Source: Thermoplasmata archaeon
Lineage (GTDB): Archaea > Thermoplasmatota > Thermoplasmata > Thermoplasmatales > GCA-001856825
NCBI GenBank assembly: GCA_021792255.1
Contig: JAJYUZ010000001.1
Location: 384,001 to 448,000 of the forward strand
Length of the DNA: 64,000 nucleotides
Direction of reading: 5' to 3'
Position 1 is the first letter of the stretch. Every line of letters begins with the position of its first letter. This document shows, piece by piece, positions 42,997 to 63,222 of this stretch. The notes under the pieces are model-generated. The model did not search any database. It worked only from the letters and a program-made list of their open reading frames with translations, and was not told the DNA's origin. The position numbers were made by a program, and so were the translations under genes.

Positions 42997-43022
42997 AGTC
43001 CCATAACGGTTGGCTTGAACTC

Positions 43023-43949: not shown

Positions 43950-43957
43950 ATTTCACC

Positions 43958-44872: not shown

Positions 44873-44878
44873 CCTCAG

Positions 44879-44905
44879 AATAAAAAATAAATTAAGAAAA
44901 AATAA
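44879..44905 (-). terminator. U-rich archaeal terminator candidate between the binding-protein and permease genes
   Basis: A-rich run on + (T-rich on -) shortly downstream of the binding-protein stop. Confidence 0.4.
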
Positions 44906-44941
44906 GGAATTTACTCTGGCAACATAGAGTGATTCACTTAT

Positions 44942-46351
44942 CTATATTCTGTTGGTCACTCCAGCTTGTAATATAAGGGTAAAGACTTGCGCTGTTGAAT
45001 TCTCTAGAACCATCGTTAGAGGCACTCCATTAGTTTGCAAGCCAGAAATTATTGCTGCTTCAATCTGATTCATCGTGGAAGCTGGTGTTATTGCAGAGTT
45101 GCCCGTAGCATTCTGTTCAAGATTTGATGCGCCCTGCCCAAAGGGAGTCCAGTAATATGCCATCTGCGGGATGTTGGGGAATTTCTGTGTGTGACTCTCC
45201 TGCGCCACCCATCCAGCTACCAGTGGATCCGATCCGGGGTTTGCACTGATGTAAGTTCCCACTGACTTAAGAGCTGGTAGGTCGCCCGCTTGGGTATAAA
45301 GATTTAGCTGAGCAGTGTAGTTCGTCATTTCTTCAACAAATTGGACAGAAGCCCATATCTGAGCTGCGGTTGCCCCACTTGCCTTGTTGTTCGCTACTAG
45401 GTATCCGATTGATCCCCAGAGAGGTTGTGGCCAAAATCCAGTCGCATTGTTGAACGGCATCGGAGCTACTCCTAGGTTATTGCCAAGCGCTTTCAGGTAA
45501 GTAGATTGATCCCAAGGCCCGTCAAACATGAATGCGGAGTGGTTAGACTCAAAGTATGCCTGCTCATCGCTCATTCCGCTCAGTCCCGGCTGGTCTATAT
45601 GATACTTAACTGTCCAGTTCCAGACATAGCTCATCGCGGCTACGTCCGGAGTGCTGTTCAGCATTGGGTAGCCCGTAGAATTAAATATCTCGCCTCCAAA
45701 TGCAGGATACCAAGCTGCGAATCTGTATCCTGAAGTTGCTCCTATGTCATATGGTAATCCAAGATATGATGAACCCATGTTCGTCACGTTGACCGCGTCC
45801 TGAACCATCTGATACAGAGTGGACGGTGGTTGCCCATTGGGTAGCAAAGCCTTGTTGTAATACATTGCAATTCCATTTGTATTTACTGGCAGACCATAGA
45901 TTGCTCCATTAAGTGTCCAATCGCTTATAGTACCTGAGGTGTAGTTGGAAAACACGCTTGAAGGCAAATACTGACTTAGATTTACCAGGAGACCTCCACT
46001 GTAGAGGCTCCCACCATTATCGCTTGAATCCCTGTAGACATTAGGTGCCGTACCAGAAGTAGCATCGGTAACAAAATTTGTTGACCCGACTGAAACCCCA
46101 TAAGTTATATCGACGGTAACATTAGAATGTGCTGCTTCGAAAAGTGCCAAAGACTGATTGAATGCTGCTGATTCACCACCAGATGCACTTGTATCCCAGA
46201 TTGTAATAGTCACCTTTGCAGCGGGTGGTGTGCTTTTGTGAGGCAGTGAAACCGCAACAGCGACGGCAGCAATTATCACCACAACAACTATTGCCACAAT
46301 TAAAACGTTCCTCCGGCTTTTGGGAGGACTACCACTATCAGTAGTACTCAT
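44942..46351 (-). CDS. Maltodextrin ABC substrate-binding protein, N-terminally membrane-anchored
   Basis: N-terminal TM, GAIYGLP, MYYNK, DGPW, PNIPQMAYYW MalE-like motifs; many N-x-S/T sequons. Confidence 0.88.
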   Translation of the reverse strand: MSTTDSGSPPKSRRNVLIVAIVVVVIIAAVAVAVSLPHKSTPPAAKVTITIWDTSASGGESAAFNQSLALFEAAHSNVTVDITYGVSVGSTNFVTDATSGTAPNVYRDSSDNGGSLYSGGLLVNLSQYLPSSVFSNYTSGTISDWTLNGAIYGLPVNTNGIAMYYNKALLPNGQPPSTLYQMVQDAVNVTNMGSSYLGLPYDIGATSGYRFAAWYPAFGGEIFNSTGYPMLNSTPDVAAMSYVWNWTVKYHIDQPGLSGMSDEQAYFESNHSAFMFDGPWDQSTYLKALGNNLGVAPMPFNNATGFWPQPLWGSIGYLVANNKASGATAAQIWASVQFVEEMTNYTAQLNLYTQAGDLPALKSVGTYISANPGSDPLVAGWVAQESHTQKFPNIPQMAYYWTPFGQGASNLEQNATGNSAITPASTMNQIEAAIISGLQTNGVPLTMVLENSTAQVFTLILQAGVTNRI

Positions 46352-46439
46352 AGGATAATATATGAAACTCCTTACCTTAAATGTTTGCTTTGGGCTACTG
46401 GACCAAACTAATATAGCCCAACGGGGTTCATTACATTAC

Positions 46440-48314
46440 ATGCCACAAATTGTGAGCTCTGATGGATTCTTTAGTAAAGTTAGATTCCAAATGAGCAAAT
46501 TTGATGGAATCAAAACTGCATATCTATCCGGTGACTTAAACTGCTGGGGAGAGGGAAGCATTGTTCTCAGTGGCGAGGATTCGTTGTCGGTAGATGTAAC
46601 TCTCCCACCTGGACATTATAATTACACAATACTCATCAACCAGTACCAACGTTATCTAGAAAGTGGTAGACCGAGCAAAAAAAGATCGAGCATAGAGTTA
46701 GGTCTAGGGAAGGTGTATCATAACCCTGATCTGTCACAATTCTCCTGCATCTCTCAGGGGCTGATGGAACTGAGAGTAGCCGTTCCAAAAGCGACCAAGA
46801 AGATCGAACTTTTGTGTAAGGGAAACACGATCAAAGAAAAGAGGGTGAAACTTGACAAATATGATCTGGGAGTTTTCTTTGTTAACAATCCAGGTGATTA
46901 CGCTTTTGTGGTAGACGACAAAAGATACCCGGCACAAGGGAATTTTTCCCCGAAGAATGAAACTCGAAAATTGTACGATTCCAGTGGAATAATTTATCAC
47001 ATCTTTCCGGACAGATTCAATAGATCGGAACAGAGCGATGGCAGAGTGTTCGAGAAATGGGGGGCGGCACCCAAGTACAACAATTTCTTTGGCGGGAACA
47101 TTAAGGGCATAACCGAGAAACTGGGATACCTGCAGTCTATAGGAGCCGAGTTTCTTTACATAAATCCAATTTTCAAGGCCAATTCTAATCACAGATACGA
47201 TGTCTCAGATTACTATGAAGTAGACCCTATTTTGGGGGATATGCAATCATTAAAGGAATTGGTTCAAGAGGCCCACAGGAAAGGTATGAAGATAATTCTT
47301 GATATGGTCTTTAACCACTCATCCACAACATTCGCGCCTTTTCTAGATGTCATTAAAAATGGAACAAATTCGAAGTTCTTCGATTGGTACTTGTTCCACT
47401 CAAACGACTTTAGAGTTTACAGAGGGAGATACAAACCCACCGATAAAAATAATGAACCTTCTTACGAGACATTTATGGGTCATGGCCTCTTGCCGAAGCT
47501 GAATCATTTGAACAAGGAAGTCAGGAACTATTTTAGAGGAGTGATCCGGTACTATGCAGAAGAGATTCGAGTTGATGGATTTAGATTCGATGTTGCCCAT
47601 TCCATGTTCCTCGATTTCTTCCGAGAGCTGAATGAAGATTTTGATCGGAGGAAGGAAAGGAAGATTACGATAGGAGAAGCTTGGTGCCTGTCTCCACTAT
47701 TCTTTAGAGAGAAATATTGGAACAGCGTGACCAACTATTACCTCAGAGACGCAATAATATCCTACGTAAACGGTTCAATAGATATTTCTGAATTCGATAC
47801 AAGGCTTGAAAAATATATTATCACCACTGGAAGGACGGAAATAGAGGGAGTGATGAACATTCTCGATTCTCACGACACGATAAGGATATTAAACAAATTC
47901 AAAGGGAGTTTGAACAGAGTAAAACTAGCATTCGCAATACTCTATTTGCTAAATGGATTGCCTACTATATATTATGGCGACGAAGTCGGCCTCCATGGAG
48001 GGAGAGATCCGGACGATAGAAGATGTTTTCCGTGGGAAAAAATAGACAGTGAACTGCTTGTCTTTTTCAAAAATCTGGCCGATTTTAGAATGAGGCACGA
48101 CATTGGATATGGGGGGGCTATTTCTTGTCTCTCGAATTCATCGTGGGACGCCCTCATTCGCTATAGAAAGAAGGATCAGATCAGACTCTACGTGCCAAAG
48201 AAACTGACTAAACTCCCTGAAAATACAAAGGATTCGCTTGTCGTCAAGCGATATAACACAGCTAGTAACTACGTGAGCGCGGGTGACTTTTTCTTTACAA
48301 TAACTTCTCGCTGA
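46440..48314 (+). CDS. GH13 neopullulanase/cyclomaltodextrinase with N-terminal CBM48-like domain
   Basis: IFPDRF, NHRYD, DMVFNH, GFRFDVA, IGEAW, DSHD, IYYGDE; start 46440 preferred over 46362. Confidence 0.9.
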   Translation: MPQIVSSDGFFSKVRFQMSKFDGIKTAYLSGDLNCWGEGSIVLSGEDSLSVDVTLPPGHYNYTILINQYQRYLESGRPSKKRSSIELGLGKVYHNPDLSQFSCISQGLMELRVAVPKATKKIELLCKGNTIKEKRVKLDKYDLGVFFVNNPGDYAFVVDDKRYPAQGNFSPKNETRKLYDSSGIIYHIFPDRFNRSEQSDGRVFEKWGAAPKYNNFFGGNIKGITEKLGYLQSIGAEFLYINPIFKANSNHRYDVSDYYEVDPILGDMQSLKELVQEAHRKGMKIILDMVFNHSSTTFAPFLDVIKNGTNSKFFDWYLFHSNDFRVYRGRYKPTDKNNEPSYETFMGHGLLPKLNHLNKEVRNYFRGVIRYYAEEIRVDGFRFDVAHSMFLDFFRELNEDFDRRKERKITIGEAWCLSPLFFREKYWNSVTNYYLRDAIISYVNGSIDISEFDTRLEKYIITTGRTEIEGVMNILDSHDTIRILNKFKGSLNRVKLAFAILYLLNGLPTIYYGDEVGLHGGRDPDDRRCFPWEKIDSELLVFFKNLADFRMRHDIGYGGAISCLSNSSWDALIRYRKKDQIRLYVPKKLTKLPENTKDSLVVKRYNTASNYVSAGDFFFTITSR

Positions 48315-48357: not shown

Positions 48358-49044
48358 TTATTCCTTGAGTTTAAACCTGCCGATTTTTTCCATGATCTCA
48401 AGCAATTCCTTAGAGTACGGAGATGAATCGAATAGATCCGTTTCTGTCACTCGAGAGTAATGACCATTTGCGTGGATGATCCTTCCTTTCCCCTGGTGGA
48501 AAGCAACGTGACCCTCGAAAAATACCAAATCCCCAGGAAGTGCGGACTCGAAGTCTGGTACAGTTTCTGATGCCTTACTTTGCTGATCAGAATTTCTGGG
48601 AATCTCCGTCCCAGAAAAACGAAAGAGTCTTTGAGTATATCCGGAACAGTCAAATCCGAAATCGGATGTCCCTCCCCAAAGGTAAGGGATACCGACGAAC
48701 CTCCTTGTCAAATTGACTGGGATGAAGGTTTCCTCGATCGGGCGGAGATATCTCTTAGGTAACTTGAAAACGCTGACGTCACGCTTGCTCACATACGATC
48801 CAAAGGGAAAAGACAACTTTTCACTTCGAACTTGATGTGACAATTTATAGTGTCTTTCACTCCATTCTCCTAAGAGAGCAGTTTTCACGTATCCTATCAC
48901 TCCATCTACGCTCTTCACCTTAGAAAAAGTTCCCAAGTTCTCTAGTAATTCGACAGACTCTCCGAAGATTACCTGTGAATCTCTTTCAGATTCCGTGGAA
49001 GGTTTAGTCCAGATATCTGCAACACTGGTAACGATCATCTGCAT
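48358..49044 (-). CDS. SH3b + NlpC/P60 (C40) peptidase, YkfC/dipeptidyl-peptidase VI-like, cytoplasmic
   Basis: PYLWGG..FGFDCSG, PGDLVFF.GHV, IIHA (Cys-His-His); N-terminal SH3b-like SQVIFGESV; no signal peptide. Confidence 0.88.
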   Translation of the reverse strand: MQMIVTSVADIWTKPSTESERDSQVIFGESVELLENLGTFSKVKSVDGVIGYVKTALLGEWSERHYKLSHQVRSEKLSFPFGSYVSKRDVSVFKLPKRYLRPIEETFIPVNLTRRFVGIPYLWGGTSDFGFDCSGYTQRLFRFSGTEIPRNSDQQSKASETVPDFESALPGDLVFFEGHVAFHQGKGRIIHANGHYSRVTETDLFDSSPYSKELLEIMEKIGRFKLKE

Positions 49045-49100
49045 TAGATTTCGAATGAGTGCAGTTAGAAAAATGTTTTGCCAAAATTCCTTTCTAGGCG

Positions 49101-50351
49101 TTAATTCTCGTTCAGAAGACTGGTCAATAAATTTGGAAGTTCTATTACTTCCTCGCTCTTGTTCAAGTTTGCAAAACAGATCGGACAGGCGGTAACTATC
49201 TTTTGCGCATTCACGCTCTTCAGTTGTAGAAACCGATTTTGGGACACCTTCTCTGCTATCTCTCCATAGAGCAATTCGTCCGGACCACCACAGCAGGAAG
49301 TGTTTTCACCGCTCATCTTTGGAAGTTCTAGATTCGTAAGATTTGACAGAAGTCTTGAAGGAGAATTGTTGATCTTTCCTCCTCTGGTCAGCAAGCACGG
49401 CTCGTGGAGTGTCGTCGAAGCATCAGACTTTTTGAATTTCTTAGTGTCCAGAATGTCTAAGTAGTATAGAACTTCTAAATCGAAGCCCCTTACATATTTT
49501 GGATACTTTGAAGTCAGGAGGTCGTAGGTGTGGGGATCTGCGACAATCAATCTTTCTATTCCTTTTGCCTTTAGCAGCGAATAAACTCTGTTTGCATATT
49601 CTGAGAACTCTTTCTCGTACCCAAGATCGTACAAGAATGTTCCTGGATAAGGTTCATCCTTTCCGAGATAAGAAAACGATATTCCTGAACTTTCTAGCAG
49701 GGTGACAATGTTCCTGAGTTCAGTTTCCATATATGATTTCATTTTCTTATCTAAGCTCAGCCCTGCGACTTTTATAAGCGATGGATGCTTGGAAATGAAT
49801 CCGGCGAACCGTTGGGAGAGTTTCTTTCCTAACAATTTTTTCATCCTTCCAAGCGACGTGCTATATGGCATTAACTGGAACATATTCCCGGTGTAAAATA
49901 AAGTCCTAGAGCCATCTTCAAAATGCAGATCTTGGGCCCACTTAGAGCACTTCTCTCTGACGCCCAAGGGATTCATGTACTTCATCGTCACACTTACAAT
50001 CATCTTGGCAATCTGTTGCTCGTTCTGTTCATTAAAATAATCTAGGTTCGCAATGACCGTCCTCGACAATTCACTGACTCTACCTGCATTGACTCCAGCA
50101 GGGCACACTTGGAGACACGCATTACAGCTTAGGCAACTGTAAAATGAATCAGAGAATCTCAGCTCGATTTTCCCCTTTTCAGAAATTTCCCTGAGAAGAT
50201 AATTTCCTAAATCGACCCTTCCTCTAGCTCCGTATATTGAATTAAATCCCACGGCTGGAAAAGTTGGACAAACCGACTCACAAAAACCGCAGTTTATGCA
50301 CTTACCTGCTTCATCAGATATCAGCTGAAGTATCGGATCCTCAAACGTCAA
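49101..50351 (-). CDS. GlcF-like Fe-S subunit of a 2-hydroxyacid dehydrogenase
   Basis: CINCGFCESVCP, CLSCNACLQVCP, HEPC, CCG, TACPIC; overlaps the GlcD-like gene. Confidence 0.85.
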   Translation of the reverse strand: MTFEDPILQLISDEAGKCINCGFCESVCPTFPAVGFNSIYGARGRVDLGNYLLREISEKGKIELRFSDSFYSCLSCNACLQVCPAGVNAGRVSELSRTVIANLDYFNEQNEQQIAKMIVSVTMKYMNPLGVREKCSKWAQDLHFEDGSRTLFYTGNMFQLMPYSTSLGRMKKLLGKKLSQRFAGFISKHPSLIKVAGLSLDKKMKSYMETELRNIVTLLESSGISFSYLGKDEPYPGTFLYDLGYEKEFSEYANRVYSLLKAKGIERLIVADPHTYDLLTSKYPKYVRGFDLEVLYYLDILDTKKFKKSDASTTLHEPCLLTRGGKINNSPSRLLSNLTNLELPKMSGENTSCCGGPDELLYGEIAEKVSQNRFLQLKSVNAQKIVTACPICFANLNKSEEVIELPNLLTSLLNEN

Positions 50352-51741
50352 AGATCTTTCCCCTGTTCAGCAGATTTTTTGGATCTATGGTAGTCTTAAT
50401 GGACTTCATTAGTTCCATCGTTCCTGGTGAATTTTTGAGTCTAAATTCTTCCTTGAGCAAGTCCTTTTTTTCCATTCCGATACCGTGTTCCGCGGATACA
50501 CTTCCCGCGTGCTTTAGTGAAATCATCCCCAACTCCTTTTGGAAACGTTCTACGCTCTCCACCTTTTCCTTGCTTGAAAGATCCACAAAGATGTTTGCGT
50601 GTATATTTCCGTCCCCTATGTGACCGAAAATTGCGGCTCTGATTGCAAACGATTCCATGGATTCCTTTACTTCTTTCAGGGTAGCGGGCAGTTCTGAAGT
50701 TGGTACCACTATGTCGCTCAAAACGACACGCTCTGAAGTCGATTTCCGTTGCGAAAGTATCGAAGAGTATAGCCCTTTTCTTGCCTCGTACATTTTCTGC
50801 ATTTCACTTTCGTCAGTGGTTACCTTGACCGAAATTGGATGAAATTCTGATAGCATCGTTGCAACCTCTTTGAGTTGTCTTTCGAGAGATTCTTTTGTAG
50901 ATGCGATGTCTAATAGAAGCATATAGTTGGTTTTCTCGGGGAATTCTATCTCCTTTGTTAGCCTTATAGATTCGAGCGATATTCTGTCCATGAATTCTGC
51001 CACTTGTGGATTTATTCCCTTTCCCTTGATTGATGCAACCGCCTTTCCTGCGCTTTCTATGTCTTCAAAATAGGAGAGGACTCTTCCTACCTTTTCTGGC
51101 TTAGGCCAAATCTTTAAAATGGCCTTGGTCATAATTCCGAGAGTCCCCTCGCTTCCAATCAGTAGGGCCGTGAGATCGTACCCAGCGCTTCTCTTGAGAG
51201 TCATTCCGCCCATCTGCACGATCTCTCCATTGGGCAGTACGGCCTCTATCCCAAGCACCCAGTCCTTGGTGACCCCATACATTGCTCCCCTGAGTCCTCC
51301 AGCGTTTGTTGACAGAGACCCGCCAACAGTGCATACTCTAGAGCTCGCAGGGTCTGGTGGATAGAAATGGTCATATTTTGACAAAAACTCGTTCAAGTCG
51401 TCTAACCTGACTCCCGACTCCACGAGTGCGTATCTGTCCTCAACCTTGACTTCCAAAATCTTGTTGAACTTCGAAAGACTGATTATTACTCCGTTGCCAT
51501 TGAGAACTGATGACCCTGTCAGGGAAGAGCCACCGCCCCTTGCCGTCATCTGCACATCGTTTTCATAGCAGTACTTCATTATTTGAGACAGTTCTTGGAC
51601 GCTTTCTGGGATGACAACAGCTAGAGGGAAGTCACCTTGGTGCTCTGATGCATCTCTCGTGTAAGGAATCATTTCCTCTTTGGAAAAAAGAACGTTATTT
51701 CCTGAAATTCTCCTCAATCCTGAAGAAATATCCATTCTCAT
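50341..51741 (-). CDS. GlcD-like FAD-linked D-2-hydroxyacid (D-lactate/glycolate) dehydrogenase
   Basis: RGGGSSLTG, YPPDPAS, NAGG, GSEGTLG, GHIGDGNIH, AEHGIG motifs. Confidence 0.9.
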   Translation of the reverse strand: MRMDISSGLRRISGNNVLFSKEEMIPYTRDASEHQGDFPLAVVIPESVQELSQIMKYCYENDVQMTARGGGSSLTGSSVLNGNGVIISLSKFNKILEVKVEDRYALVESGVRLDDLNEFLSKYDHFYPPDPASSRVCTVGGSLSTNAGGLRGAMYGVTKDWVLGIEAVLPNGEIVQMGGMTLKRSAGYDLTALLIGSEGTLGIMTKAILKIWPKPEKVGRVLSYFEDIESAGKAVASIKGKGINPQVAEFMDRISLESIRLTKEIEFPEKTNYMLLLDIASTKESLERQLKEVATMLSEFHPISVKVTTDESEMQKMYEARKGLYSSILSQRKSTSERVVLSDIVVPTSELPATLKEVKESMESFAIRAAIFGHIGDGNIHANIFVDLSSKEKVESVERFQKELGMISLKHAGSVSAEHGIGMEKKDLLKEEFRLKNSPGTMELMKSIKTTIDPKNLLNRGKIFDV

Positions 51742-51953
51742 CTGGAATTAAGATTAATTCAATAAGTTTACGATTATGAGTACCTCTGCGTTATTTATTT
51801 GACCCCATTAGATGGAAGAGGACTGAAATGGTCCACTCATCCTCGAATTTTAGAATTGTTCAGATCTGACGTCGACATGAATTTGTTCTATGGCTCCGGA
51901 GGAATCAGGTTGATCTGACCGGTGGGCTAAGTATATTATTCAGGTCATCATAT

Positions 51954-53099
51954 TTGCTTATGAAGAAGATACCGGCGTTGCTAGTGACAGTTATATTGAT
52001 TGTGTTGACCCTTTCCATAACAAATTTTGTTGCCCCTACGTATTCTTCTTTAGGTCACAGCGACAATGGAAATTATCCGGCCGTCTCTCAGGCATCTTAC
52101 TATAATGGCACAAAGGCGGTGGACTATGGGCTTATGGTTCACACCGATTACATTCACAAAGCGTACTATCCAGCAGGAATTAATCAGTCGATTCTTCAGA
52201 AGAACTTGGATTACTTTAATTCAGAGGACTGTGCCCATTTTGTCTCGGAATCTCTAATCGCGGGAGGACTCACAGTGTTGGCAAGCAATCCACCGGGGGA
52301 CAATTTGACCAGCTACGATCAAGGATACTTTGGGAACGGGAGCTATGGAATTGTAGGAGTATACAGACTCGCTGATTGGCTTGCGGGATACGACCTGCCA
52401 ATCTTCCCTAACAATGCTACGGACGAGCAAACTATCGGATATTATCCAATCCCAGCGTCCTACGCTGGCAGCCCACAAGCGACCATGTTCTATGTTTTCA
52501 ACTATACGATGTTCCCATCATATTTCCTTTCACCGGGTGACGTGGTCATGGATGGAGGCGCGGGAGGCGGTCACGCAATGCTATACATCGGAAACGGACA
52601 GGTTGTCCAAACGGACCCCGCTGCGATATGGAATTATTCCCCTGCCGTGGACAATAATATCACTTTTTATGGTATATTGAGCTACTTTGGAAAGAATGTT
52701 TCTTCGCTGTACGTTCATATTCCTACTTTTGGTGAAAAGAGCGTAAGAATATCGGTACTGAACGACAATACGAACATAACAGGAAACCTCTCTGCAGTCA
52801 AGGCTGGAGAAAAACTGACGTTTATTGGCTCTTTCCCGAACGGAGTTGGTGAAGGGAATTACACCTATCAATGGATCGTTAACGGAAAATCAATGTCCAA
52901 TAGTCAGTTCTTTAACCTCACTCCATCATCGGGAACGTACAACATTGAAGTCGTATCCACCGGTTCAACTGGATCTGTAAATACGTCTATGTCATTTACG
53001 ATTGGTGGTAGTTCAACAACGACAACCATTCTGGTTGTTGGATTGGTAATTGTGGTAGCAGCTGTCTCTGCAATATTCCTCTTCAAAAGGAGAAAATGA
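51954..53099 (+). CDS. Secreted, membrane-anchored Amidase_6-like (NlpC/P60/CHAP superfamily) hydrolase with PKD-like domain
   Basis: Signal peptide; DCAHFVSESLIAGG (cf. DCxNFVSQxLxAGG); PGDVV...GHAMLY; PKD-like NYTYQW; C-terminal TM and FKRRK tail. Confidence 0.7.
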   Translation: MLMKKIPALLVTVILIVLTLSITNFVAPTYSSLGHSDNGNYPAVSQASYYNGTKAVDYGLMVHTDYIHKAYYPAGINQSILQKNLDYFNSEDCAHFVSESLIAGGLTVLASNPPGDNLTSYDQGYFGNGSYGIVGVYRLADWLAGYDLPIFPNNATDEQTIGYYPIPASYAGSPQATMFYVFNYTMFPSYFLSPGDVVMDGGAGGGHAMLYIGNGQVVQTDPAAIWNYSPAVDNNITFYGILSYFGKNVSSLYVHIPTFGEKSVRISVLNDNTNITGNLSAVKAGEKLTFIGSFPNGVGEGNYTYQWIVNGKSMSNSQFFNLTPSSGTYNIEVVSTGSTGSVNTSMSFTIGGSSTTTTILVVGLVIVVAAVSAIFLFKRRK

Positions 53100-53182
53100 G
53101 TTGGCGATTGGTGAAAGAGAACTTCGCGCGCATAATACCTCTCGAATGAGGAAGGACAAGCTTACTCTAGATACGGTGAAGT

Positions 53183-54319
53183 ATGAAGACTAGCGAAACG
53201 TATGCATTCTCTACGATATATACCGGACAAGGGATAGTCCACAGGGGATTCCTGAAGATAATCGACGGATCGATTGAGGAATTAGGTGAGGCTCCTCAGA
53301 ATTCCATTGACCTCACGGATAGGATTGCAGTCCCCGGATTCATAGATATACACACTCATGGAATTAATGGAATCGACTCCTTCAACCTGACGAAGACAGA
53401 GCTCCTAGAGTGGAGCCAATTGTTACTAGAAAGGGGGACACTGGGATTTGTGCCGACTATCGTTTCTGCTCCTATTGAGAAGATAAAGGGTTTCTTGGGA
53501 GTCTTAAAGAGTTCTGAAGGATCTGAAAACGGAGCCGAAATAATTGGAGGAAGAATGGAAGGGCCCTTCATAAGTCATGTCAGGAAGGGAGCACACGATC
53601 CGTCTTTACTCAGAGTTCCTGCGAATACCAATTTTCAAGCAATCTTGTCGCAATTCAAAGGAATTCTTAAGATTGTAGACATTGCACCCGAACTGGACGG
53701 AGCTGGAGAGCTAATTTCAGAACTGGTCAGAGAAGACGTGGTGGTATCAATCGGTCACACGGATTGCGATTCCGTCACCGCGAAACGCGCATTTGCCTTG
53801 GGAGCGACGCTGGTGACGCACCTGTACAATGCGATGCGACCATTTCATCATCGATTCCCCGGGGCAATTGACTTCGCATTGTTAGAGAAGAATGTTATGG
53901 CAGAGATTATCTGTGATCTCGTTCACGTATCTCCTGAAGCAATCAAACTCGCCATCAGTAATAAAGGAGCAAAAAGAATTGTGCTTATTACTGACTCGAC
54001 GCCAGCAACTGGCAGGCCCGATGGAAAATACAAACTAGGTCGACTTGATGTTCTAAAACAGGGAGATAAGTGCACGATAAGTGGGACAGAGACGCTGGCA
54101 GGAAGTGTACTCACCATGGATAGAGCAGTCAAGAATCTAGTAGACTTAAAATATGATCTGGATGAGGTGGTCAAGATGTCTTCAAAAAATCCTGCTACCT
54201 TACTCGGAAGGAAAGACTTGGGCAGTATAAAGAAAGGGAAAAAGGCCAATATTACAATTCTGGACAAATCCCTAAGAGTAAGAGGTGTCGTTTCCAGGGG
54301 TGCGCTGATAGAGTTCTAG
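53183..54319 (+). CDS. nagA: N-acetylglucosamine-6-phosphate deacetylase
   Basis: PGFIDIHTHG, EGPFI, KGAH, GHT, THLYNAM, DLVHV, ITDS, LAGS. Confidence 0.94.
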   Translation: MKTSETYAFSTIYTGQGIVHRGFLKIIDGSIEELGEAPQNSIDLTDRIAVPGFIDIHTHGINGIDSFNLTKTELLEWSQLLLERGTLGFVPTIVSAPIEKIKGFLGVLKSSEGSENGAEIIGGRMEGPFISHVRKGAHDPSLLRVPANTNFQAILSQFKGILKIVDIAPELDGAGELISELVREDVVVSIGHTDCDSVTAKRAFALGATLVTHLYNAMRPFHHRFPGAIDFALLEKNVMAEIICDLVHVSPEAIKLAISNKGAKRIVLITDSTPATGRPDGKYKLGRLDVLKQGDKCTISGTETLAGSVLTMDRAVKNLVDLKYDLDEVVKMSSKNPATLLGRKDLGSIKKGKKANITILDKSLRVRGVVSRGALIEF

Positions 54320-54353
54320 TAATGTCTAATATTATGTTGGCTATGCGATAATC

Positions 54354-55196
54354 ATGCCTGAAAGGGAAAGATTGCCAGACACCGAAAAGTCAAATCCTAG
54401 AACAACGAACATCCCTGAACTTTCAACCTATGAAATCGTCAATCTGATTCATTCGGAGGACATCAGTGCATTTAGAGCCATTGACGGCACAACAAGACCC
54501 ATTTCTAAAGTCATAGATTCTTGTTTCAAAAAACTAATGATGGGTGGAAGGGTTGTGTATGTTGGATCTGGCACCAGTGGCAGAATCGGAGCACAAGACG
54601 CGATTGAAATGTGGCCAACGTATGGACTGGGTAAGGAGACATTTGATTATGTGATAGCAGGAGGTGAACGAGCCCTGACCAGGTCAATCGAAGGTGCAGA
54701 AGACTCAAGAGAAAGTGCGGTAGAAATGATCGAGAAGAAAAACATTACTGCTAACGACTGTGTAATAGGTATTACCGCATCTGGCCGAACGCCATTCGTG
54801 TTCGGAGCTTTGGAGAGCGCATCTAAAAAGGGAGCCTATACCGCTGCGATAGTGAATTCGAGAAATTCTCCATTGAAGGAAGTATCGAGAAATGTCATAT
54901 TCCTGAACACGGGAGAAGAAGTCATCCAGGGATCAACGAGAATGAAAGCTGCGACCGCTCAAAAGATGGTTCTGAACATAATCAGCACATCTCTTGCAAT
55001 CAAACTGGGACGAACTTACGGAAATCAAATGATTCATATGAAGGCGTCTTACAATGCAAAGCTAAGAAACAGGGCAGTCAGAATTCTAGCACAAAGGTTC
55101 GATATTTCTGTGATCGAAGCAGAGAAGAGACTCAAATCGCACAAGTACAACTTGAGCGAAACAGTAAAAGAGCTGGAACAGGTCAAGAGAGATTGA
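54354..55196 (+). CDS. murQ: N-acetylmuramic acid 6-phosphate etherase
   Basis: TEKSNP, GSGTSGRIGAQDAIE..PTYG, IEGAED (both catalytic Glu kept), ASGRTP, GSTRMKAATAQKMVLN, GNQM. Confidence 0.92.
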   Translation: MPERERLPDTEKSNPRTTNIPELSTYEIVNLIHSEDISAFRAIDGTTRPISKVIDSCFKKLMMGGRVVYVGSGTSGRIGAQDAIEMWPTYGLGKETFDYVIAGGERALTRSIEGAEDSRESAVEMIEKKNITANDCVIGITASGRTPFVFGALESASKKGAYTAAIVNSRNSPLKEVSRNVIFLNTGEEVIQGSTRMKAATAQKMVLNIISTSLAIKLGRTYGNQMIHMKASYNAKLRNRAVRILAQRFDISVIEAEKRLKSHKYNLSETVKELEQVKRD

Positions 55197-56265
55197 GGAA
55201 TACCGTGTTGTGAAAGAGCCTCCTCAATCTTAAATTCTTAATATTCTCCCTCGTAGGATATACCCTGTTCGTCAGGAGAATACACGCCAACTTCATGTCA
55301 GAATTAATGCATATAGAGGTCCCCGTAAAACCAGTATGGCCGAAAGTACCGTATGGAGAAAATTCTCCCATGAAACCGTTGAAATCAAATGACTCGCTCT
55401 TTACTTCCGGCACTGGCACCTTCGTCATCCAACCCAGTCCAAACATTCCACCAAGATGTGCATTCTTATTCCTCGTTGCCAGTTCCCAAACACTCCTCTG
55501 TAGAAGCTCTCCATTCGCGAGAGAATGAATTATCCTGTTTATCTCTGAAGCGGTCGAAAATAGGCCCGCGTGTCCAGCGACCCCTCCGAGATAGTAAGAC
55601 TTTTCATCGTGCACTTTCCCCCACACCAAACCTCTTTCTTCTGTAACTTCGGTAGGAGCTATTCTTTCCTTGCTCTGATGGGGGTTAAATCCCGAGTTCT
55701 TGAGTCCGAGTTTTTCCGCTACTTCGTGTTTCCAAATCGTGTCAAGGGGCTTGTTGTGCAGTTCTTCCAGTACGAACCCGAGAAGTATGTAATTCAGGTC
55801 GCTGTAAAGCTCCTTCTTGTTCACAGTCGCCTTTTCTGCTTCTACTTCGATTCCAGAAAGATATGCCCTTCTGTCTCTTCCCGCGGTGTAGAGAGGTTTG
55901 TCTGGTATGAGCCCTGAAGTATGAGTCATCAGATTTTCTATGGTAAATTTCCCCAGATTCGGGAATTCTCCAAACAACCCGATATCAGCTATCGAATCCT
56001 TTAAGGATATCTTCCCTTTTGCGAGAAGCCTGCACATCAGCAGGGACGTCACCAGGGGTTTCGTTAGCGATGCTAGATCGAATATCGTGTCTTTGTTGTA
56101 GCTGAACCCCAGTTCGTCGATTTGTCCAAATGCGTTTTGATAAAGGACCTTTCCATCGAGAGAAACGAGGGCGCTCAAACCCCTTGTGGAGGAAGGTACA
56201 TTGTCGTGCAGCACCGAGTCGATTTCAGTGGAAAGCTTCTCTTCATCAATGGTACTCATATTCAA
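55183..56265 (-). CDS. Beta-lactamase-fold serine hydrolase, AmiE/YbbE-like (putative MurNAc-L-Ala amidase)
   Basis: FDLASLTK (SxxK), HTSGL, YSD, GKVHDE...GGVAGHAGLFS, GHTGFTG, LTNRVYP; no signal peptide. Confidence 0.8.
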   Translation of the reverse strand: MNMSTIDEEKLSTEIDSVLHDNVPSSTRGLSALVSLDGKVLYQNAFGQIDELGFSYNKDTIFDLASLTKPLVTSLLMCRLLAKGKISLKDSIADIGLFGEFPNLGKFTIENLMTHTSGLIPDKPLYTAGRDRRAYLSGIEVEAEKATVNKKELYSDLNYILLGFVLEELHNKPLDTIWKHEVAEKLGLKNSGFNPHQSKERIAPTEVTEERGLVWGKVHDEKSYYLGGVAGHAGLFSTASEINRIIHSLANGELLQRSVWELATRNKNAHLGGMFGLGWMTKVPVPEVKSESFDFNGFMGEFSPYGTFGHTGFTGTSICINSDMKLACILLTNRVYPTRENIKNLRLRRLFHNTVFLNLS

Positions 56266-56312
56266 CTATCTTCTATTGGTATTATAATCATTCTGATTTC
56301 AGCTCCTTCGAA

Positions 56313-57212
56313 TCACCTTGGTTTTAATAGATCCTTTTTCATTATTGTGAATCTTCTGGTCACCTTGAAACCAAATCTTGAATAGAGGTGAGTGGCCCGT
56401 TCGCTTGTCCACAAAAAGTAAGCGTGCTTCAGACCCAGCCCCTTCATGTTGTTCAACAATTGGGCTAGGATCAGTGCCCCTATCCCCTTTGATCTCTCTT
56501 TGTCCTCGACGCCGAATGGACCAAACCTTTCCCCCGGGGAGTACCACATGTCGCCCCTTCCAGCAGAAAACATTCCATAGCCAACTATTCTCCTTCCGAT
56601 TCTTGCAATCACAACTTGATCCTTGATTCCCATTTCAGCGACTCCCTTTGCACGATAGTAACAGTCGGAATTGAAGTTCTTTTCCACGAACGAAAGGAAC
56701 TTGGCCTCTTCACCTTGTCTGAGGGAGGAAACTTCAAACTCACTCGGCTCTATTTCTAAGTGCTGCATCTTTCCAATTTCTGCTTCCATGGAAATAGCCT
56801 CTTCGTGTGGGACGAAACCCAGCCTACCCAGTTCCCTTGCCAGCGAACGATACCTAACGGCGTCCACTCCTGGCATCAAGTAATTTGGTACCACATTAGA
56901 GTAGTATACCGTTTTCACTTTTCTATTGAGGAATTCTTCAAATTGCAAGTCCATTAATTTTCCAAAATTCTTCCTATCCTTGAATCCGCTCCCGAAGAAC
57001 CACCCCTTGTCGCTCTCGGAGGATTCGTAGTAGAATTTCTTCTTCCTAGTTACAGCGAGCGAGAATGCATCTTCCAGTGTAATCGGTAAAATGGGGTTCA
57101 AGTATTCGTCCTGAAGAAAGCTTCTTCGGATTTCCCGAGTCGTCACCGGATCGAGGCTATAAAATGAATTCCACTTTTTTTGAATTTCTTCTGCAGAATC
57201 ATTCTTACTCAT
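56313..57212 (-). CDS. GNAT N-acetyltransferase, probably tandem-GNAT (GlmA-like)
   Basis: C-terminal FGPFGV...RSKGIG acetyl-CoA motif, LYSRFGF; PNYLMPGV motif. Confidence 0.75.
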   Translation of the reverse strand: MSKNDSAEEIQKKWNSFYSLDPVTTREIRRSFLQDEYLNPILPITLEDAFSLAVTRKKKFYYESSESDKGWFFGSGFKDRKNFGKLMDLQFEEFLNRKVKTVYYSNVVPNYLMPGVDAVRYRSLARELGRLGFVPHEEAISMEAEIGKMQHLEIEPSEFEVSSLRQGEEAKFLSFVEKNFNSDCYYRAKGVAEMGIKDQVVIARIGRRIVGYGMFSAGRGDMWYSPGERFGPFGVEDKERSKGIGALILAQLLNNMKGLGLKHAYFLWTSERATHLYSRFGFKVTRRFTIMKKDLLKPR

Positions 57213-58218
57213 AGAGATAGCACGCCACTAGGTGGTCTTTTTCAACTTCTCTGAACTTAGGCCTCTCCTTCCTGCAGTTGTCCATTACGAATGGACACTT
57301 GTTCGCGTAACTGCATTCATTTTTCCCCTCGTTGACGTATTCAGATATCTGTCCCTTTGACTCGTCCAAATTCCACTTCTTCTTGGGATCGGGGACAGGT
57401 ATTGAATCTATCAGGGACTTAGTGTATGGATGCATGGGGTTGTTTATGATCCTGTCAGATTTGGCGACTTCCACCAGCTGACCGAGATGCATGACCGCAA
57501 TTCTATCCGAGACATATTGAGTGACTGCAATGTCGTGTGAGATGAACATCATTGATTTGCCAAACTTGCGTTTCAGATCCAGAAGAATATTTAGGATGTC
57601 GGCTCTCAGTGAAACATCAAGCATAGAAACTGGCTCATCGGCGATGATGAAGTCCGGATTGTTGATTACCGCCCTGGCTATACCTATTCTTTGCCTTTGA
57701 CCGCCACTCAGTTGGTTCGGGAATTTATTCAGGAACTGTTCCGCTGGTGTCAGGCCAACCATTTCTATGGTCTCGATCGCCTTATTCAGAACTTCTTCCT
57801 CTTTCAGTTCCTTGTGAAACACTCTGAGAGGCGTAACTATTGATTTATAGACTGAGATCACCGGGTTTAGAGAACTGTATGGGTCCTGGAAAATCATCTG
57901 TGTCTTTTCCCTGAAACCGAACAGCTGGCGCCCTGTGTATTTCATTATATTGTTACCATTGAAAATTATTTGTCCGGAATCGACGTCCATTAACTTCAAC
58001 AGCGCAAGTCCTAGAGTCGTCTTTCCACTGCCGCTCTCCCCTATGAGTCCGAAAATTTCGTGCTCTTTGATCTGCAGTTTGACCTGGTCCAGGGCTCGTG
58101 TTGTCCTGCTCTCTCTCCTTATGATCCCTCTCTTGTTGATGAAATCCTTCGTGAGTTCATTAGTTTCGATCGTACTACTTTCCATCAGATCACCTTCCAT
58201 AGAGATGACACGCGGCAT
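57205..58218 (-). CDS. Opp/Dpp-type ABC ATPase (OppF-like)
   Basis: GESGSGKT, FQDPYSSLNP, LSGGQRQR, DEPVSMLD, HPYT, C-terminal Cys motif. Confidence 0.93.
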   Translation of the reverse strand: MPRVISMEGDLMESSTIETNELTKDFINKRGIIRRESRTTRALDQVKLQIKEHEIFGLIGESGSGKTTLGLALLKLMDVDSGQIIFNGNNIMKYTGRQLFGFREKTQMIFQDPYSSLNPVISVYKSIVTPLRVFHKELKEEEVLNKAIETIEMVGLTPAEQFLNKFPNQLSGGQRQRIGIARAVINNPDFIIADEPVSMLDVSLRADILNILLDLKRKFGKSMMFISHDIAVTQYVSDRIAVMHLGQLVEVAKSDRIINNPMHPYTKSLIDSIPVPDPKKKWNLDESKGQISEYVNEGKNECSYANKCPFVMDNCRKERPKFREVEKDHLVACYLYE

Positions 58219-59161
58219 AGTGTCCCTGTGAAACCATTTTCAATTCTGGCACCTCGTTCTTACACCTGTCGAATACGCTGTCGCACCTGTCCTTGAATGG
58301 GCATCCTTTAATTTCCTCTGAAAGATCTGGTGGAGTTCCTCTGATTCCCTTGACGGACTTCTCTTGTTCGAGAGATGGAATCGAGGCCAGTAGGGCCTTT
58401 GTATATGGATGCTGAGGACTGTCGAAGATTTCGTTAGATGGTCCACTTTCTGCAATCTTACCCGCGTACATCACATTGACTTTGTCTGCTATGTTAGCCA
58501 CCAGAGAAATATCGTGCGTAATGAAGATCAGTGAAATTGAAAGGTCATCCTTTAACTTGAGTAGCCTCGTCAGTATCTGTCTCTGAACCACTACGTCAAG
58601 GGCAGTCGTGGCCTCATCTGCTATTAGAATCTTAGGATCACAAGACAATGCCAGTGCTATGTTGACTCTTTGTTTCATCCCACCGCTCAACTCGTGAGGG
58701 AAAGATTTTCTAACGTTCTTGGTGAGCCCCGCAAGTTGAAGCATATAGTCGATCCTCTCGTCCACCTCATCTTCCTTGTACCCGTGTTCAACCATAACGT
58801 CCCCCATCTGATCCTCAATTCTCATTACTGGATTTAGTGAGTTCATAGCACTCTGGAATATCATAGAGACTTCTTTCCATCTGTACTTTCTGAGCGCGGA
58901 TGGTTTCATCTTTAAAACATCAGACTTCCCCTCACTCCCGTAGTACACAACTTTTCCACCCTTGATTTTCCCCGGATATTCGAGGAGTTTAAGGAAGGTC
59001 ATTGCCAGTGTGGATTTACCAGATCCGCTTTCACCCACTATCCCAATCACTTCTCCCTTGTTGACATCAAGACTGACGTGTGAAACGGCTTTTATTGTCC
59101 TATCAGGAAGTACGTAGTCTACGGAGAGATCGACCACTTCCATAATCGTTGAAGTCGTCAT
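58190..59161 (-). CDS. Opp/Dpp-type ABC ATPase (OppD-like)
   Basis: GESGSGKS, FQSAMNSLNP, LSGGMKQR, DEATTALD, HPYT. Confidence 0.93.
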   Translation of the reverse strand: MTTSTIMEVVDLSVDYVLPDRTIKAVSHVSLDVNKGEVIGIVGESGSGKSTLAMTFLKLLEYPGKIKGGKVVYYGSEGKSDVLKMKPSALRKYRWKEVSMIFQSAMNSLNPVMRIEDQMGDVMVEHGYKEDEVDERIDYMLQLAGLTKNVRKSFPHELSGGMKQRVNIALALSCDPKILIADEATTALDVVVQRQILTRLLKLKDDLSISLIFITHDISLVANIADKVNVMYAGKIAESGPSNEIFDSPQHPYTKALLASIPSLEQEKSVKGIRGTPPDLSEEIKGCPFKDRCDSVFDRCKNEVPELKMVSQGHYAACHLYGR

Positions 59162-60063
59162 TTCCCATTCCCCTTTGAAGCTTTTGAAATTTCGTATATC
59201 GCATTCGATAGGAAATTAGCGCCAATTCCCAATATCACGATCCCCAATCCCGGGGGAAGTAGCCACCACCATGCTCTGTAAACGATTCCATCTTCGGCCT
59301 GGAAGAAATATAGCATGGTCCCCCAGTTCACAGACCTTAGGTCTCCAAGACCAAAAAAGGCAAGACCAGCTTGAGCTACTACTCCACCGACTGCCAAGAA
59401 TATCGCATTGATGAAGATTATAGGAAGGAGGTTCGGAAGGATATCTCTGATAATAATCTGCATTCCATTCAGCCCCGAGAGCTTTGAAGCCATGATGTAT
59501 GGTCTTTCTTTGAGAGACAGTGTTTGCGATCTTACTACCCTAGCAAGAAAAGGCCAACTCAAGATCGAGAGGACAAAAATCGTAGTTTCCAGAGTCGGTG
59601 GGAGAAATGCGGAAAGTATGACGAGCAAAGGAAATCCCGGGATCACCAGCAGAACGTCTACTGCCCTCATCAGTACGTCGTCGACCTGTCTTCCAAAGTA
59701 TCCTGCCACCACTCCAACTAGAACTCCTATGAAAGCAGAAAGGAGCGCGATGCTTAATCCCACGACCAGAGATGTTCCAGTACCGATGAGGAACCAAGAG
59801 AATATGTCAGCCCCTTCGTAATCGGTACCTAGCAGGTGTTGATAACTCGGTGGTTGGAAGGCTAGAGAGTTAGTGTTATAGGGCGAATACGGAGCAAAAA
59901 AGTATCCGAATATCGCAAGAAGACCCAATGCCGTCAGAATTATGAGACCCGCCCGTCCTTTTTTGTGCGACCATACTCCCTTCATGAAGCTCCTGAACCT
60001 GTTCATCGGGCTATTGCTTGCCAACGCCCTTTGTATTTCTTCCGCTCTTGCTTCGGACATCAT
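59158..60063 (-). CDS. Opp/Dpp-type ABC permease (OppC-like)
   Basis: HLLGTD, ARVVRSQ, WGTML, WWWLLPPG. Confidence 0.92.
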   Translation of the reverse strand: MMSEARAEEIQRALASNSPMNRFRSFMKGVWSHKKGRAGLIILTALGLLAIFGYFFAPYSPYNTNSLAFQPPSYQHLLGTDYEGADIFSWFLIGTGTSLVVGLSIALLSAFIGVLVGVVAGYFGRQVDDVLMRAVDVLLVIPGFPLLVILSAFLPPTLETTIFVLSILSWPFLARVVRSQTLSLKERPYIMASKLSGLNGMQIIIRDILPNLLPIIFINAIFLAVGGVVAQAGLAFFGLGDLRSVNWGTMLYFFQAEDGIVYRAWWWLLPPGLGIVILGIGANFLSNAIYEISKASKGNGK

Positions 60064-61058: not shown

Positions 61059-61337
61059 TTCAATGTTATTAGCTCATGTGATATAGTCCTTTTTGAACCT
61101 GAACTTACCCTCCCCTCACTTCAATCTCATAGTCGTATACTTTGGTGACGAACCTAAAAATTAAGATCGGAGGTGCTCGTCTATCTAAGATAATTCTAAT
61201 TGCGAGTTTTCATAATTTAAATTTTAATTGAAATGCGTTCTTAACGACCCACTTTTTTAACTGTTTTAAGTGGGGTTTAAGTAGTTTATCTCTTAAAAGA
61301 CCAGAAATCTATAAATTCAGGATGTATTATAAAGTCT

Positions 61338-63182: not shown

Positions 63183-63194
63183 TATTTGACCATC

Positions 63195-63222
63195 TTTTTT
63201 TTATTTTTCTTTATTTTCTTTC
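63195..63222 (+). terminator. U-rich archaeal terminator downstream of the OppA-like gene
   Basis: Long T-rich tract beginning about 12 nt after the stop codon. Confidence 0.55.

Follow-up and report, generated by a model that had tools for sequence, protein, structure and literature searches.

A tethered NlpC/P60-type surface protein as the predicted front end of a muropeptide catabolic island in a Thermoplasmata archaeon

To our knowledge, archaea make no murein. What, then, is a predicted set of muropeptide-degrading genes doing in the chromosome of an archaeon, and what might be the role of the putative cysteine hydrolase encoded among them? The question is raised by a 64,000-nucleotide stretch of DNA from a Thermoplasmata archaeon (assembly GCA_021792255.1, contig JAJYUZ010000001.1, positions 384,001 to 448,000 of the forward strand), referred to here in its full length as the window. 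In this window, the target gene (51954-53099, +) stands directly before nagA and murQ. We consider it fairly probable that its product is a surface hydrolase that cuts amide bonds in bacterial peptidoglycan, a predicted activity, and that it feeds an island of genes whose products import and degrade the resulting fragments.

The target reading frame counts 381 amino acids from the TTG at 51954. Translation probably starts at the ATG at 51960, because the product of 379 amino acids then has the length of a database protein (P0001) that is 99% identical to it. A TATA-like element, TATATTAT, lies at 51932-51939 (+), about 25 nucleotides upstream of this ATG; given the usual geometry of archaeal promoters, its position points to a transcript without a leader at the head of the target-nagA-murQ run. 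The gene heads a same-strand run with nagA (53183-54319) and then murQ (54354-55196), as an earlier reading of the DNA from its letters (hereafter the sequence-only reading) had described. The start of nagA is preceded by a GGTGA Shine-Dalgarno-like motif and no run of T separates it from the target gene, features that are compatible with co-transcription of the two genes but do not prove it.

The setting of the gene is archaeal. The GC content of the window is even (0.41-0.47), the contig extends over 498 kb of a 1.59-Mb genome that is 93.55% complete, and the window encodes archaeal markers such as an ArcS-type DUF5591+PUA protein and a TrmB regulator. All named relatives come from Thermoplasmatota-type metagenome-assembled genomes (MAGs). 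These observations side with the earlier argument that an archaeal-type architecture speaks against contamination. Three studies have metagenome runs, from mine drainage, mine tailings and sediment, that contain DNA nearly identical to this stretch; several of these runs are possible sources of the assembly itself.

The protein belongs to a family that has escaped annotation. A word-indexed search returned 87 homologues at E<=1e-3, which are 210-442 amino acids long, all unannotated and all without a precomputed Pfam domain. The few that carry a name are recorded under Thermoplasmata, Thermoplasmataceae, Methanomassiliicoccales, 'Bathyarchaeia' or uncultured archaeon, and the family appears to be confined to Thermoplasmata. 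Forty-three of the 87 homologues, 43-68% identical to the query, make up the family alignment used below. When the catalytic-domain profile was compared with 1.84 billion representatives clustered at 50% identity, nine proteins were found at E<=1e-3, one of them full-length (P0032), and this search provided no bridge to a characterized enzyme beyond three remote matches: P0091, which carries an NLPC_P60 domain at 83 bits, P0095, whose NLPC_P60 match of 23.1 bits is just over the cut-off, and P0093, an LRAT protein. By these measures the family is very isolated, essentially one cluster in sequence space. Some genomes encode two paralogues, as does a Ca. Sysuiplasma MAG (L008 and L021, 58% and 44% identical to the query); another genome (G080) also has two copies, on contigs C5 and C6, with island genes near each paralogue.

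Several features indicate that the protein is placed on the outside of the cell. The N-terminal hydrophobic segment (residues 1-31, 51954-52046, +) was recognized by hydropathy and forms a helix at residues 6-22 in the AlphaFold2 (AF2) model; it is likely to be a Sec-type signal peptide, which may be cleaved, or a signal anchor. The linker that follows (residues 23-46) is modelled with low confidence, its predicted local distance difference test score (pLDDT) being below 50. At the other end, hydropathy and the AF2 model agree on a transmembrane helix (residues 357-380, 53022-53096, +) that follows a Thr-rich linker and ends in KRRK, and hydrophobic 19-residue windows (Kyte-Doolittle mean >1.6) are confined to residues 1-31 and 349-380. 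The protein has 14 N-x-S/T sequons, compared with 4.8 ± 1.9 in shuffles of its ectodomain, and only one shuffle in 2000 reached 14. This amounts to 3.67 sequons per 100 amino acids, compared with 0.33-0.71 in five cytoplasmic neighbours and 2.6-2.8 in the two tethered solute-binding proteins of the window. The ectodomain has an isoelectric point of 4.6, and C93 is the only cysteine. Across the 43 family members, 40 have a hydrophobic N-terminus and 42 a hydrophobic C-terminus, at least three K/R lie within the last eight residues of every one, and the number of sequons ranges from 8 to 19 (median 13), with N77, N154, N183, N235, N248 and N302 each kept in at least 39. Hydropathy and sequon counts have therefore recovered every surface feature that the sequence-only reading had listed, namely the signal peptide-like N-terminus, the C-terminal membrane helix, the basic tail and the many sequons. 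The protein is best described as a putative exported, membrane-anchored Cys-His hydrolase of the cell surface, presumably N-glycosylated. Since its anchoring and sequon pattern match those of the genome's own surface proteins, it appears native to this genome.

Structure search, profile comparison with hhalign, a protein-language-model atlas and the family alignment all point to a papain-like catalytic domain of the NlpC/P60 superfamily at residues ~47-258 (52092-52727, +). The AF2 model of the full-length protein has a mean pLDDT of 82.7, with the catalytic and Ig-like domains mostly above 90, and shows a helix at residues 93-103 and strands between residues 197 and 227. In a wide VIA-align search, which is independent of Foldseek, 22 of the best 50 rows span residues ~44-260 with Z scores of 8.0-10.7, and in 20 of those 22 the title names an NlpC/P60, CHAP or Tae peptidoglycan hydrolase; the remaining two are a diffocin baseplate chain and a 'bacterial peptidase'. 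The top match is the endolysin Lys2972 (8tw1_A, Z 10.7, rmsd 2.6, 124 residues aligned), and Tae3 (4hz9) aligns over 112 of 118 residues with a Z of 9.3, while CwlO scores 8.9 and LytE, SagA and MepS score 8.0-8.6. Because the stated background of the method is a Z of 7-8, the fold argument lies in the agreement among these matches and not in their height. The sequence-only reading had held that any other fold would overturn it; the rows that cover the catalytic domain, nearly all of them wall hydrolases, are of the fold it proposed.

The placement within the superfamily is less conventional. NLPC_P60 (PF00877) scores 15 bits on the target against a cut-off of 23 (E 0.025, residues 192-221) and Amidase_6 (PF12671) scores 14.4 bits against a cut-off of 23.2 (E 0.042, residues 70-115); by these cut-offs the protein belongs to neither Pfam family. 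Weak matches nevertheless recur across the family, with Amidase_6 in 34 of the 43 members (best E 1.5e-4) and NLPC_P60 in 29 (best E 0.006). Sequence searches of the PDB, with the single protein or with the family profile, were all sub-threshold (best E 0.024-0.09). With hhalign, the family aligns to P0095 at 95.4% (E 1.8e-8) over 104 columns that span both the Cys and the His motif, an alignment that also shows a family-specific insertion, and it is this insertion that brings the Cys-to-His spacing to 111-118 residues across the family. The alignment to 19 bona fide actinobacterial Amidase_6 domains reaches 89.2% (E 2.2e-6) over 45 columns, comprising the N-terminal helix and the Cys motif, and a control comparison of Amidase_6 with NLPC_P60 gives 2%. 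In the atlas, Amidase_6 accounts for 28 of the 30 best named clusters (score 0.93, 195-197 of 256 features shared), a measure that is uncalibrated for parts of proteins. The earlier label 'Amidase_6-like' can therefore be kept at the level of remote homology, where the atlas, the weak family matches and hhalign agree, but not as family membership, for which the Pfam cut-off failed. Our reading is that the target represents a separate lineage of the NlpC/P60 superfamily, in which the Cys half would be Amidase_6-like and the His half closer to canonical NlpC/P60.

The residues expected of an active site are strictly kept. The 43-member alignment has 57 invariant columns, which include the motifs EDC(93)AHFVSE and GGAGxGH(207)AMLYIGNGxVVQ(219)TDP, and C93, H207 and Q219 are present in all 43 members; the predicted catalytic cysteine is the sole cysteine in 29 of them. 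Cys93 (codon 52230-52232, +), the predicted nucleophile, aligns to the Cys motifs of Amidase_6 and P0095. His207 (52572-52574, +), the predicted general base, lies in a strand that aligns to that of NlpC/P60 proteins, including the 3pbi 'invasion protein' chain, RipA chains and the canonical NlpC/P60 protein of the island. Gln219 (52608-52610, +) is a candidate for the third residue of the active site. It follows His207 by 12 residues, and in the canonical NlpC/P60 profile it aligns with a second invariant His that likewise stands 12 residues after the catalytic His. Catalysis by Cys93 and His207 with Gln219 as the third residue is likely on this model. The Cys/His site of NlpC/P60 type that the sequence-only reading had described is thus present in every member, in the non-permuted order of Cys before His and with a polar third residue.

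Between the catalytic domain and the membrane helix, residues 259-351 (52728-53006, +) form an Ig/PKD-like beta-sandwich, assigned from structure matches and weak Pfam matches. Foldseek matches the PKD domain of an archaeal S-layer protein (1l0q, E 5e-4; VIA-align Z 8.7), and those of the best 50 VIA-align rows that lie outside the catalytic domain fall on residues 259-351 with Ig, FN3 or PKD chains (Z 8-9.4). Pfam PKD reaches residues 280-348 with an E of 0.03 and 14.7 bits against a cut-off of 23.5, PKD_3 and Ig_2 give weak matches in 26 and 16 of the 43 members, respectively, and PHROGs reports a Hoc-like Ig-domain match at residues 273-361. The PKD-like spacer of the sequence-only reading accordingly holds as an Ig-like beta-sandwich, with the PKD subtype remaining sub-threshold by sequence. 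The domain possibly serves as a stalk, or as a substrate-binding module.

What would such an enzyme be doing in an archaeon? An indication comes from the genes with which it is found. The target gene lies in what we predict to be a ~27-kb muropeptide catabolic island, which occupies positions 48358-64000 of the window and continues beyond it (L025:305-7979; G000:C3, about 432.4-455.0 kb), and the link to nagA and murQ has become stronger than the sequence-only reading had it, as MurQ and NamZ were found in all target-bearing genomes tested. For this comparison, tblastn with the proteins of the window was run in the fetched flanks of 22 related loci from named MAGs (L002-L023), seven of which hold less than 9 kb. 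Near the target, NagA was found in 10 loci, MurQ in 8, the beta-lactamase-fold protein in 9, the NlpC-SH3 protein in 10, the GNAT protein in 6 and an Opp-type component in 15; no locus is without an island gene, and in 15 of the 22 one or more of the four murein-specific genes are present. Among 301 genomes drawn evenly from the class, 5 have the target, 13 have MurQ over the cut-off and 11 have NamZ, and all 5 target genomes fall among the 11 that have both MurQ and NamZ. All six copies of the target in this sample are on the same contig as MurQ, within 27 kb. As an attempt at falsification, five target loci that lack a nearby MurQ or NamZ were followed up, and all five genomes carry both elsewhere; since the coordinates of G301 are those of G113, MurQ and NamZ are found together in 9 of 9 distinct target-bearing genomes. 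The MurQ matches in five genomes (G080, G096, G032, G243 and G141) each contain one in-frame stop (TGA, TAA or TAG), which may reflect an overhang, a sequencing error or a broken gene.

With a sugar and a peptide branch, the island itself covers nearly the whole route by which the two halves of a muropeptide would be degraded, in an archaeon that has no murein. Its sugar branch includes nagA (TIGR00221, 282.7 bits against a cut-off of 225.65), which encodes an N-acetylglucosamine-6-phosphate deacetylase, and murQ (NF003915, 311.2 bits against 168), which encodes an N-acetylmuramic acid (MurNAc)-6-phosphate etherase. The 3' end of murQ overlaps that of the convergent gene (55183-56265, -) by 14 bp (55183-55196). 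The latter encodes a beta-lactamase-fold serine hydrolase (PF00144, E 7e-45) that resembles PBP4B (124.8 bits, below the cut-off) and has no signal peptide visible by hydropathy; it may be a cytoplasmic MurNAc-L-Ala amidase of AmiE type or a D-peptidase. At the end of the window lies the gene for the exo-beta-N-acetylmuramidase NamZ (63305-64000, -; in full 404 amino acids, L025:305-1519). Beyond the window, L025 adds a NagK-like BadF-type sugar kinase, whose family model is below its cut-off, and a GH3 NagZ (187.3 bits against a cut-off of 207, also below).

The peptide branch begins at the other edge of the island with a cytoplasmic SH3 + NlpC/P60 protein (48358-49044, -), assigned by Pfam as the sole PF00877 match in the genome, which we liken to the stem-peptide endopeptidase YkfC. 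In L025 it is joined by an MR/MLE enzyme whose best match, below the cut-off, is L-Ala-D/L-Glu epimerase, a PBP4-type S13 DD-peptidase (L025:5524-6615, +) and LysA, the last two over their cut-offs. The S13 protein, which has neither a signal peptide nor a membrane helix and carries an SxxK-like SNMK near residue 30, looks cytoplasmic and N-terminally shortened, which is unusual for its family. Next to LysA, where the island ends, a C45-family autoproteolytic acyltransferase/hydrolase (L025:8122-9396, -; NF040521, 123 bits, over the cut-off) is a possible further member. More generally, we presume that these enzymes correspond to AmiE, NamZ and MurQ and to YkfB and YkfC of Bacillus subtilis.

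Uptake and side-product genes complete the set. An Opp/Dpp-type ATP-binding cassette (ABC) importer with two ATPases and two permeases (57205-61058, -) and a family-5 solute-binding protein (61338-63182, +) were identified by family scan; by hydropathy the latter has a C-terminal membrane anchor, and with its 16 sequons it has a surface layout like that of the target. Next to the importer genes lies a gene for a 299-residue GNAT acetyltransferase (56313-57212, -), with its GNAT domain at residues ~198-287 by family scan and an N-terminal part of ~190 residues that has no family match. A GlcD-like FAD dehydrogenase (50341-51741, -; 404.7 bits against a cut-off of 567.9) and a GlcF-like Fe-S/CCG subunit (49101-50351, -; family scan, below the glycolate-oxidase cut-off) may together act as a D-lactate dehydrogenase and oxidize the D-lactate that MurQ would release. 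The pair adjoins the target and murQ, and the same synteny is seen in L023. The island enzymes other than the target have no hydrophobic segment and a low sequon density; by these signals the target is the only exported enzyme of the island, and the target and the family-5 binding protein are its only exported parts.

The island is abutted by a separate cluster for the use of alpha-glucans (38068-48314) that comprises a GH31 enzyme, the TrmB regulator, a MalK-type ATPase, two permeases, an SBP_bac_8 protein that is tethered and has 13 sequons, and an alpha-amylase-family enzyme. In another genome (G091), the murein island itself contains the genes of a CUT1-type sugar ABC system (SBP_bac_1), beside NagZ. 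Searches of the target's own genome for PF01182 NagB and S66 LdcA gave no match at its 93.55% completeness, a SIS-type deaminase lying outside the search.

Not every such island has the target. Of the 11 sampled genomes that have MurQ together with NamZ, six are without it (one of them is 78% complete), and it is therefore to be regarded as an optional front end and not as a core part of the pathway. The target-less islands of G091 and G025 have tethered family-5 binding proteins of 1093 or 1291 amino acids and no recognizable exported hydrolase. These long surface proteins (L028:12914-16195, -, and L029:12250-16125, +; 2.8-2.9 sequons per 100 amino acids) were considered as substitute hydrolases, a role that was rejected, as Pfam gives an SBP_bac_5 domain only. 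About 500-700 of their C-terminal residues have no Pfam match, and these extensions might carry an unrecognized function. The 1291-residue protein has no match in the target's genome.

On this basis, the following sequence of events can be proposed. The C-terminal helix would hold the glycosylated ecto-enzyme on the membrane of a wall-less acidophile, perhaps helped by an uncleaved N-terminus, and the Ig/PKD-like stalk would lift the catalytic domain off the archaeal surface. The Cys93-His207(-Gln219) site would then attack an amide bond in the peptide part of murein, in the stem, in a cross-link or possibly between MurNAc and L-Ala; structural neighbours that differ in bond specificity are tied within about 2 Z units. 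Cleavage at the archaeal surface may release soluble pieces from wall debris or shorten shed muropeptides. The fragments would be imported by the family-5 binding protein and the Opp-type ABC transporter, for which they are the presumed substrate. In the cytoplasm, NagZ, NamZ and the amidase-like beta-lactamase-fold enzyme would take the sugar-peptide apart, after which the BadF-type kinase, MurQ and NagA could convert MurNAc to glucosamine 6-phosphate and D-lactate, the latter to be oxidized by the GlcD/F-like dehydrogenase. The stem peptide would be consumed by the NlpC/P60-SH3 protein, the L-Ala-D/L-Glu epimerase-like protein, the PBP4-type DD-peptidase and LysA. Because the target sits in a catabolic island with MurQ, NamZ and an importer, this context favours scavenging over killing.

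A number of observations weigh against this proposal. On the target, neither Pfam nor NCBIfam has a model that reaches E<=0.01, and the same scans found no recognized peptidoglycan-binding domain in it. The structural Z scores of 8-10.7 are just moderately over the background, a Foldseek search of the PDB with the whole model gave Ig/PKD/FN3-type matches only (best E 3e-4) and none for the catalytic domain, and a model of the domain by itself, built from a 22-row alignment, has a mean pLDDT of 35.4, so that the fold depends on one model. The Amidase_6 profile match ends short of the His, and the hhalign match to the catalytic domain of the island's canonical NlpC/P60 protein (11 rows) is weak (30.6%, 25 columns, His strand). 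With regard to the island, the tblastn matches to ABC components are perhaps paralogues, kinship inflates the co-occurrence signal (at least three family-level groups, f1, f3 and f11, are represented), and the target-less genomes counted above show that the pathway can do without the target. Opp-type neighbours fit plain peptide scavenging equally well. Finally, GH25, GH73 and SLT gave no match in searches of the 93.55% complete genome. As no secreted glycan-cleaving enzyme was found among the families searched, the release of importable, sugar-bearing fragments from intact sacculi is hard to explain. The organism may rely on muropeptides that are shed by bacteria or made by bacterial lytic enzymes, in which case the target would trim or un-crosslink them.

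The preference for Opp-type neighbours leads to the alternative that survives best, which we regard as unlikely but credible. The target could be a surface peptidase or amidase for a substrate other than peptidoglycan, e.g., detrital proteins or peptides, polymers of poly-gamma-glutamate type or the cell's own glycoproteins, with the Opp-type system importing the peptides. The Opp-type transporter is indeed the commonest neighbour in the 22 loci, any gene of the sugar pathway reaching at most 10 in the flanks. A lack of wall-binding domains and of any curated peptidoglycan hydrolase family at threshold would also be expected of such an enzyme, and the NlpC/P60-LRAT superfamily includes acyltransferases, with the LRAT protein P0093 among the remote matches. 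However, the constant company of MurQ and NamZ in the nine distinct target genomes, despite the rarity of both in the class, would then have no ready place, the nearest relatives by structure and by profile are wall hydrolases, and the order of Cys before His is of hydrolase type and not the permuted order of LRAT proteins.

Two further possibilities keep murein as the substrate and change the use that is made of it. We think it improbable that the archaeon grazes, i.e., that the tethered, glycan-shielded Cys hydrolase of this lineage opens the murein of bacteria that touch the cell, living or freshly dead, and that the island, as a complete catabolic set for MurNAc and stem peptides, turns the yield into carbon, nitrogen and lysine; if true, this would be a contact-dependent lytic feeding system across domains, built around a previously unrecognized hydrolase family. 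It is more doubtful still that the protein is a contact-dependent weapon, with which the tethered hydrolase would breach the walls of living bacteria and nutrition would be a by-product. [quoted passage not shown] Archaeal peptidoglycan hydrolases of other families kill bacteria in experiments, and the paper that reports this leaves the choice between killing and scavenging open (PMC12352652). An archaeon that has no peptidoglycan would presumably need no immunity protein, and the distribution of the target is patchy (5 of 301 genomes). On the other hand, the gene lies within a conserved chromosomal catabolic island and not on a plasmid or in a variable locus, its product is anchored and not diffusible, the outer membrane of Gram-negative bacteria would presumably shield the wall from a tethered enzyme, and the scans of the window, which did not include a search directed at the T6SS, showed neither a delivery system nor a companion toxin.

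Two remaining explanations fare worse. A non-catalytic receptor or adhesin, in which a degenerate hydrolase fold binds wall fragments or bacteria, is very improbable: inactive NlpC/P60 proteins do exist, a peptidoglycan-binding RipD model of NCBIfam is among the matches of the neighbouring NlpC/P60 gene, and the layout of the target resembles that of the nearby tethered solute-binding proteins, but C93, H207 and Q219 are invariant down to 43% identity, as expected of an active enzyme, and the catalytic Cys is so often the only one in the protein. There is next to no chance that the gene is left over from a viral endolysin or comes from contaminating bacterial DNA. A phage endolysin does head the structural matches, but PHROGs has no lysin-family match beside the Hoc-like Ig match, the flanking reading frames that were scanned include no phage genes, and the uniform GC, the long contig, the archaeal markers, the archaeal MAGs of all named relatives, and the anchoring and sequons like those of the genome's own surface proteins all speak against it. 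The reading that we prefer therefore remains that of a surface hydrolase that supplies the island with fragments of bacterial peptidoglycan.

Compared with known wall hydrolases, the target is closest to Amidase_6 in its first half. The N-terminal helix and Cys motif are near-identical, with ...AAVxYA...EDCAHFVSEALIAGGL in the target family and ...AAxAYAD...DCANFVSQCxxAGG in the bacterial domains. In the target family, as in Amidase_6, the Cys precedes the His, and Tae3, the nearest named relative, which is among the top structural matches (Z 9.3), presumably cuts the cross-links between meso-diaminopimelate and D-Ala. The differences from Amidase_6 are a score below the Pfam cut-off, a profile match that falls short of the His and a Cys-His spacing that the insertion has extended. 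According to a 2023 classification of papain-like enzymes, which assigns Tae3 to Amidase_6, this family has a complete core and a full triad is not required (PMC10318531), and two Amidase_6 proteins of B. subtilis, YhbB and YjcM, are tabulated as uncharacterized in another source (PMC10653849). Tae3 is a cargo of the T6SS, in contrast to the target, which is archaeal, glycosylation-ready and membrane-anchored and has a Sec-type N-terminus; these features suggest another mode of deployment.

With canonical NlpC/P60 proteins (RipA/RipB, LytE, CwlO, MepS and YkfC), the target has the papain-like fold in common, and its His strand aligns with their motif GDxxxxG...GHxxxYxGNGxxxx-polar, Q219 taking the place of their third catalytic residue. 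It differs in having a Cys motif of Amidase_6 type instead of DCSG, a much longer spacing and a Gln as the third residue. The CHAP endolysins (Lys2972, 8tw1; LysIME-EF1, 6ist; LysGH15, 4olk), which are extracellular Cys-His amidases or endopeptidases of peptidoglycan, include the best structural match; however, the target is tethered and not soluble and has no phage context, and CHAP is absent from the 25 Pfam families most often matched across the 43 members.

Exported wall hydrolases of murein-less archaea are themselves not new. The modular peptidoglycan hydrolases of Strock et al. 2025 (PLoS Biol, PMC12352652) are like the target in this respect, and they are found in 175 of 3706 archaeal genomes, with Thermoplasmatota prominent. 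Those proteins are described there as patchy and plasmid-biased, whereas the target is embedded in a catabolic island. The screen required a Pfam catalytic domain together with a Pfam wall-binding domain, from a list that includes Amidase_6, NLPC_P60 and CHAP. The target has no Pfam domain at E<=0.01 and falls outside that definition of a modular hydrolase; because it has neither a catalytic nor a wall-binding domain at threshold, we expect it to be absent from the catalogue. Our reading, if true, would mean that there are archaea that feed on bacterial cell walls, and it would bear on the question of killing or scavenging that PMC12352652 leaves open. It also means that Pfam-based surveys probably undercount the wall hydrolases of archaea, because the target family is invisible to Pfam screens and isolated.

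Bacteria recycle or rescue MurNAc with systems of the murQ-amiE-nagZ-namZ type, as in B. subtilis, or of the NagZ-AmpD-LdcA-MurQ type, as in Escherichia coli. The open-access full texts, to which our search was confined, gave nothing relevant on MurQ, NamZ, the etherase or muramic acid in Thermoplasmata or other archaea. The island has in common with the bacterial systems its NagZ, NamZ, beta-lactamase-fold protein, kinase, MurQ, NagA and stem-peptide enzymes. In contrast to those systems, its host is an archaeon that has no wall to recycle, and its glycosidases and amidases look cytoplasmic. Where bacteria take up the fragments by the phosphotransferase system or AmpG, the island would apparently use an ABC transporter, and its exported front-end enzyme comes from a lineage-specific family. 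As archaeal peptidoglycan hydrolases are already known, what would be new here is a branch of the NlpC/P60 superfamily that has gone unrecognized, is specific to this lineage and is anchored in the archaeal manner, serving as the surface arm of an archaeal murein-catabolic island. The predicted enzyme of NlpC/P60 type, acid-adapted and glycosylated, would also come with a defined set of genes through which the turnover of peptidoglycan in acid mine drainage communities could be studied.

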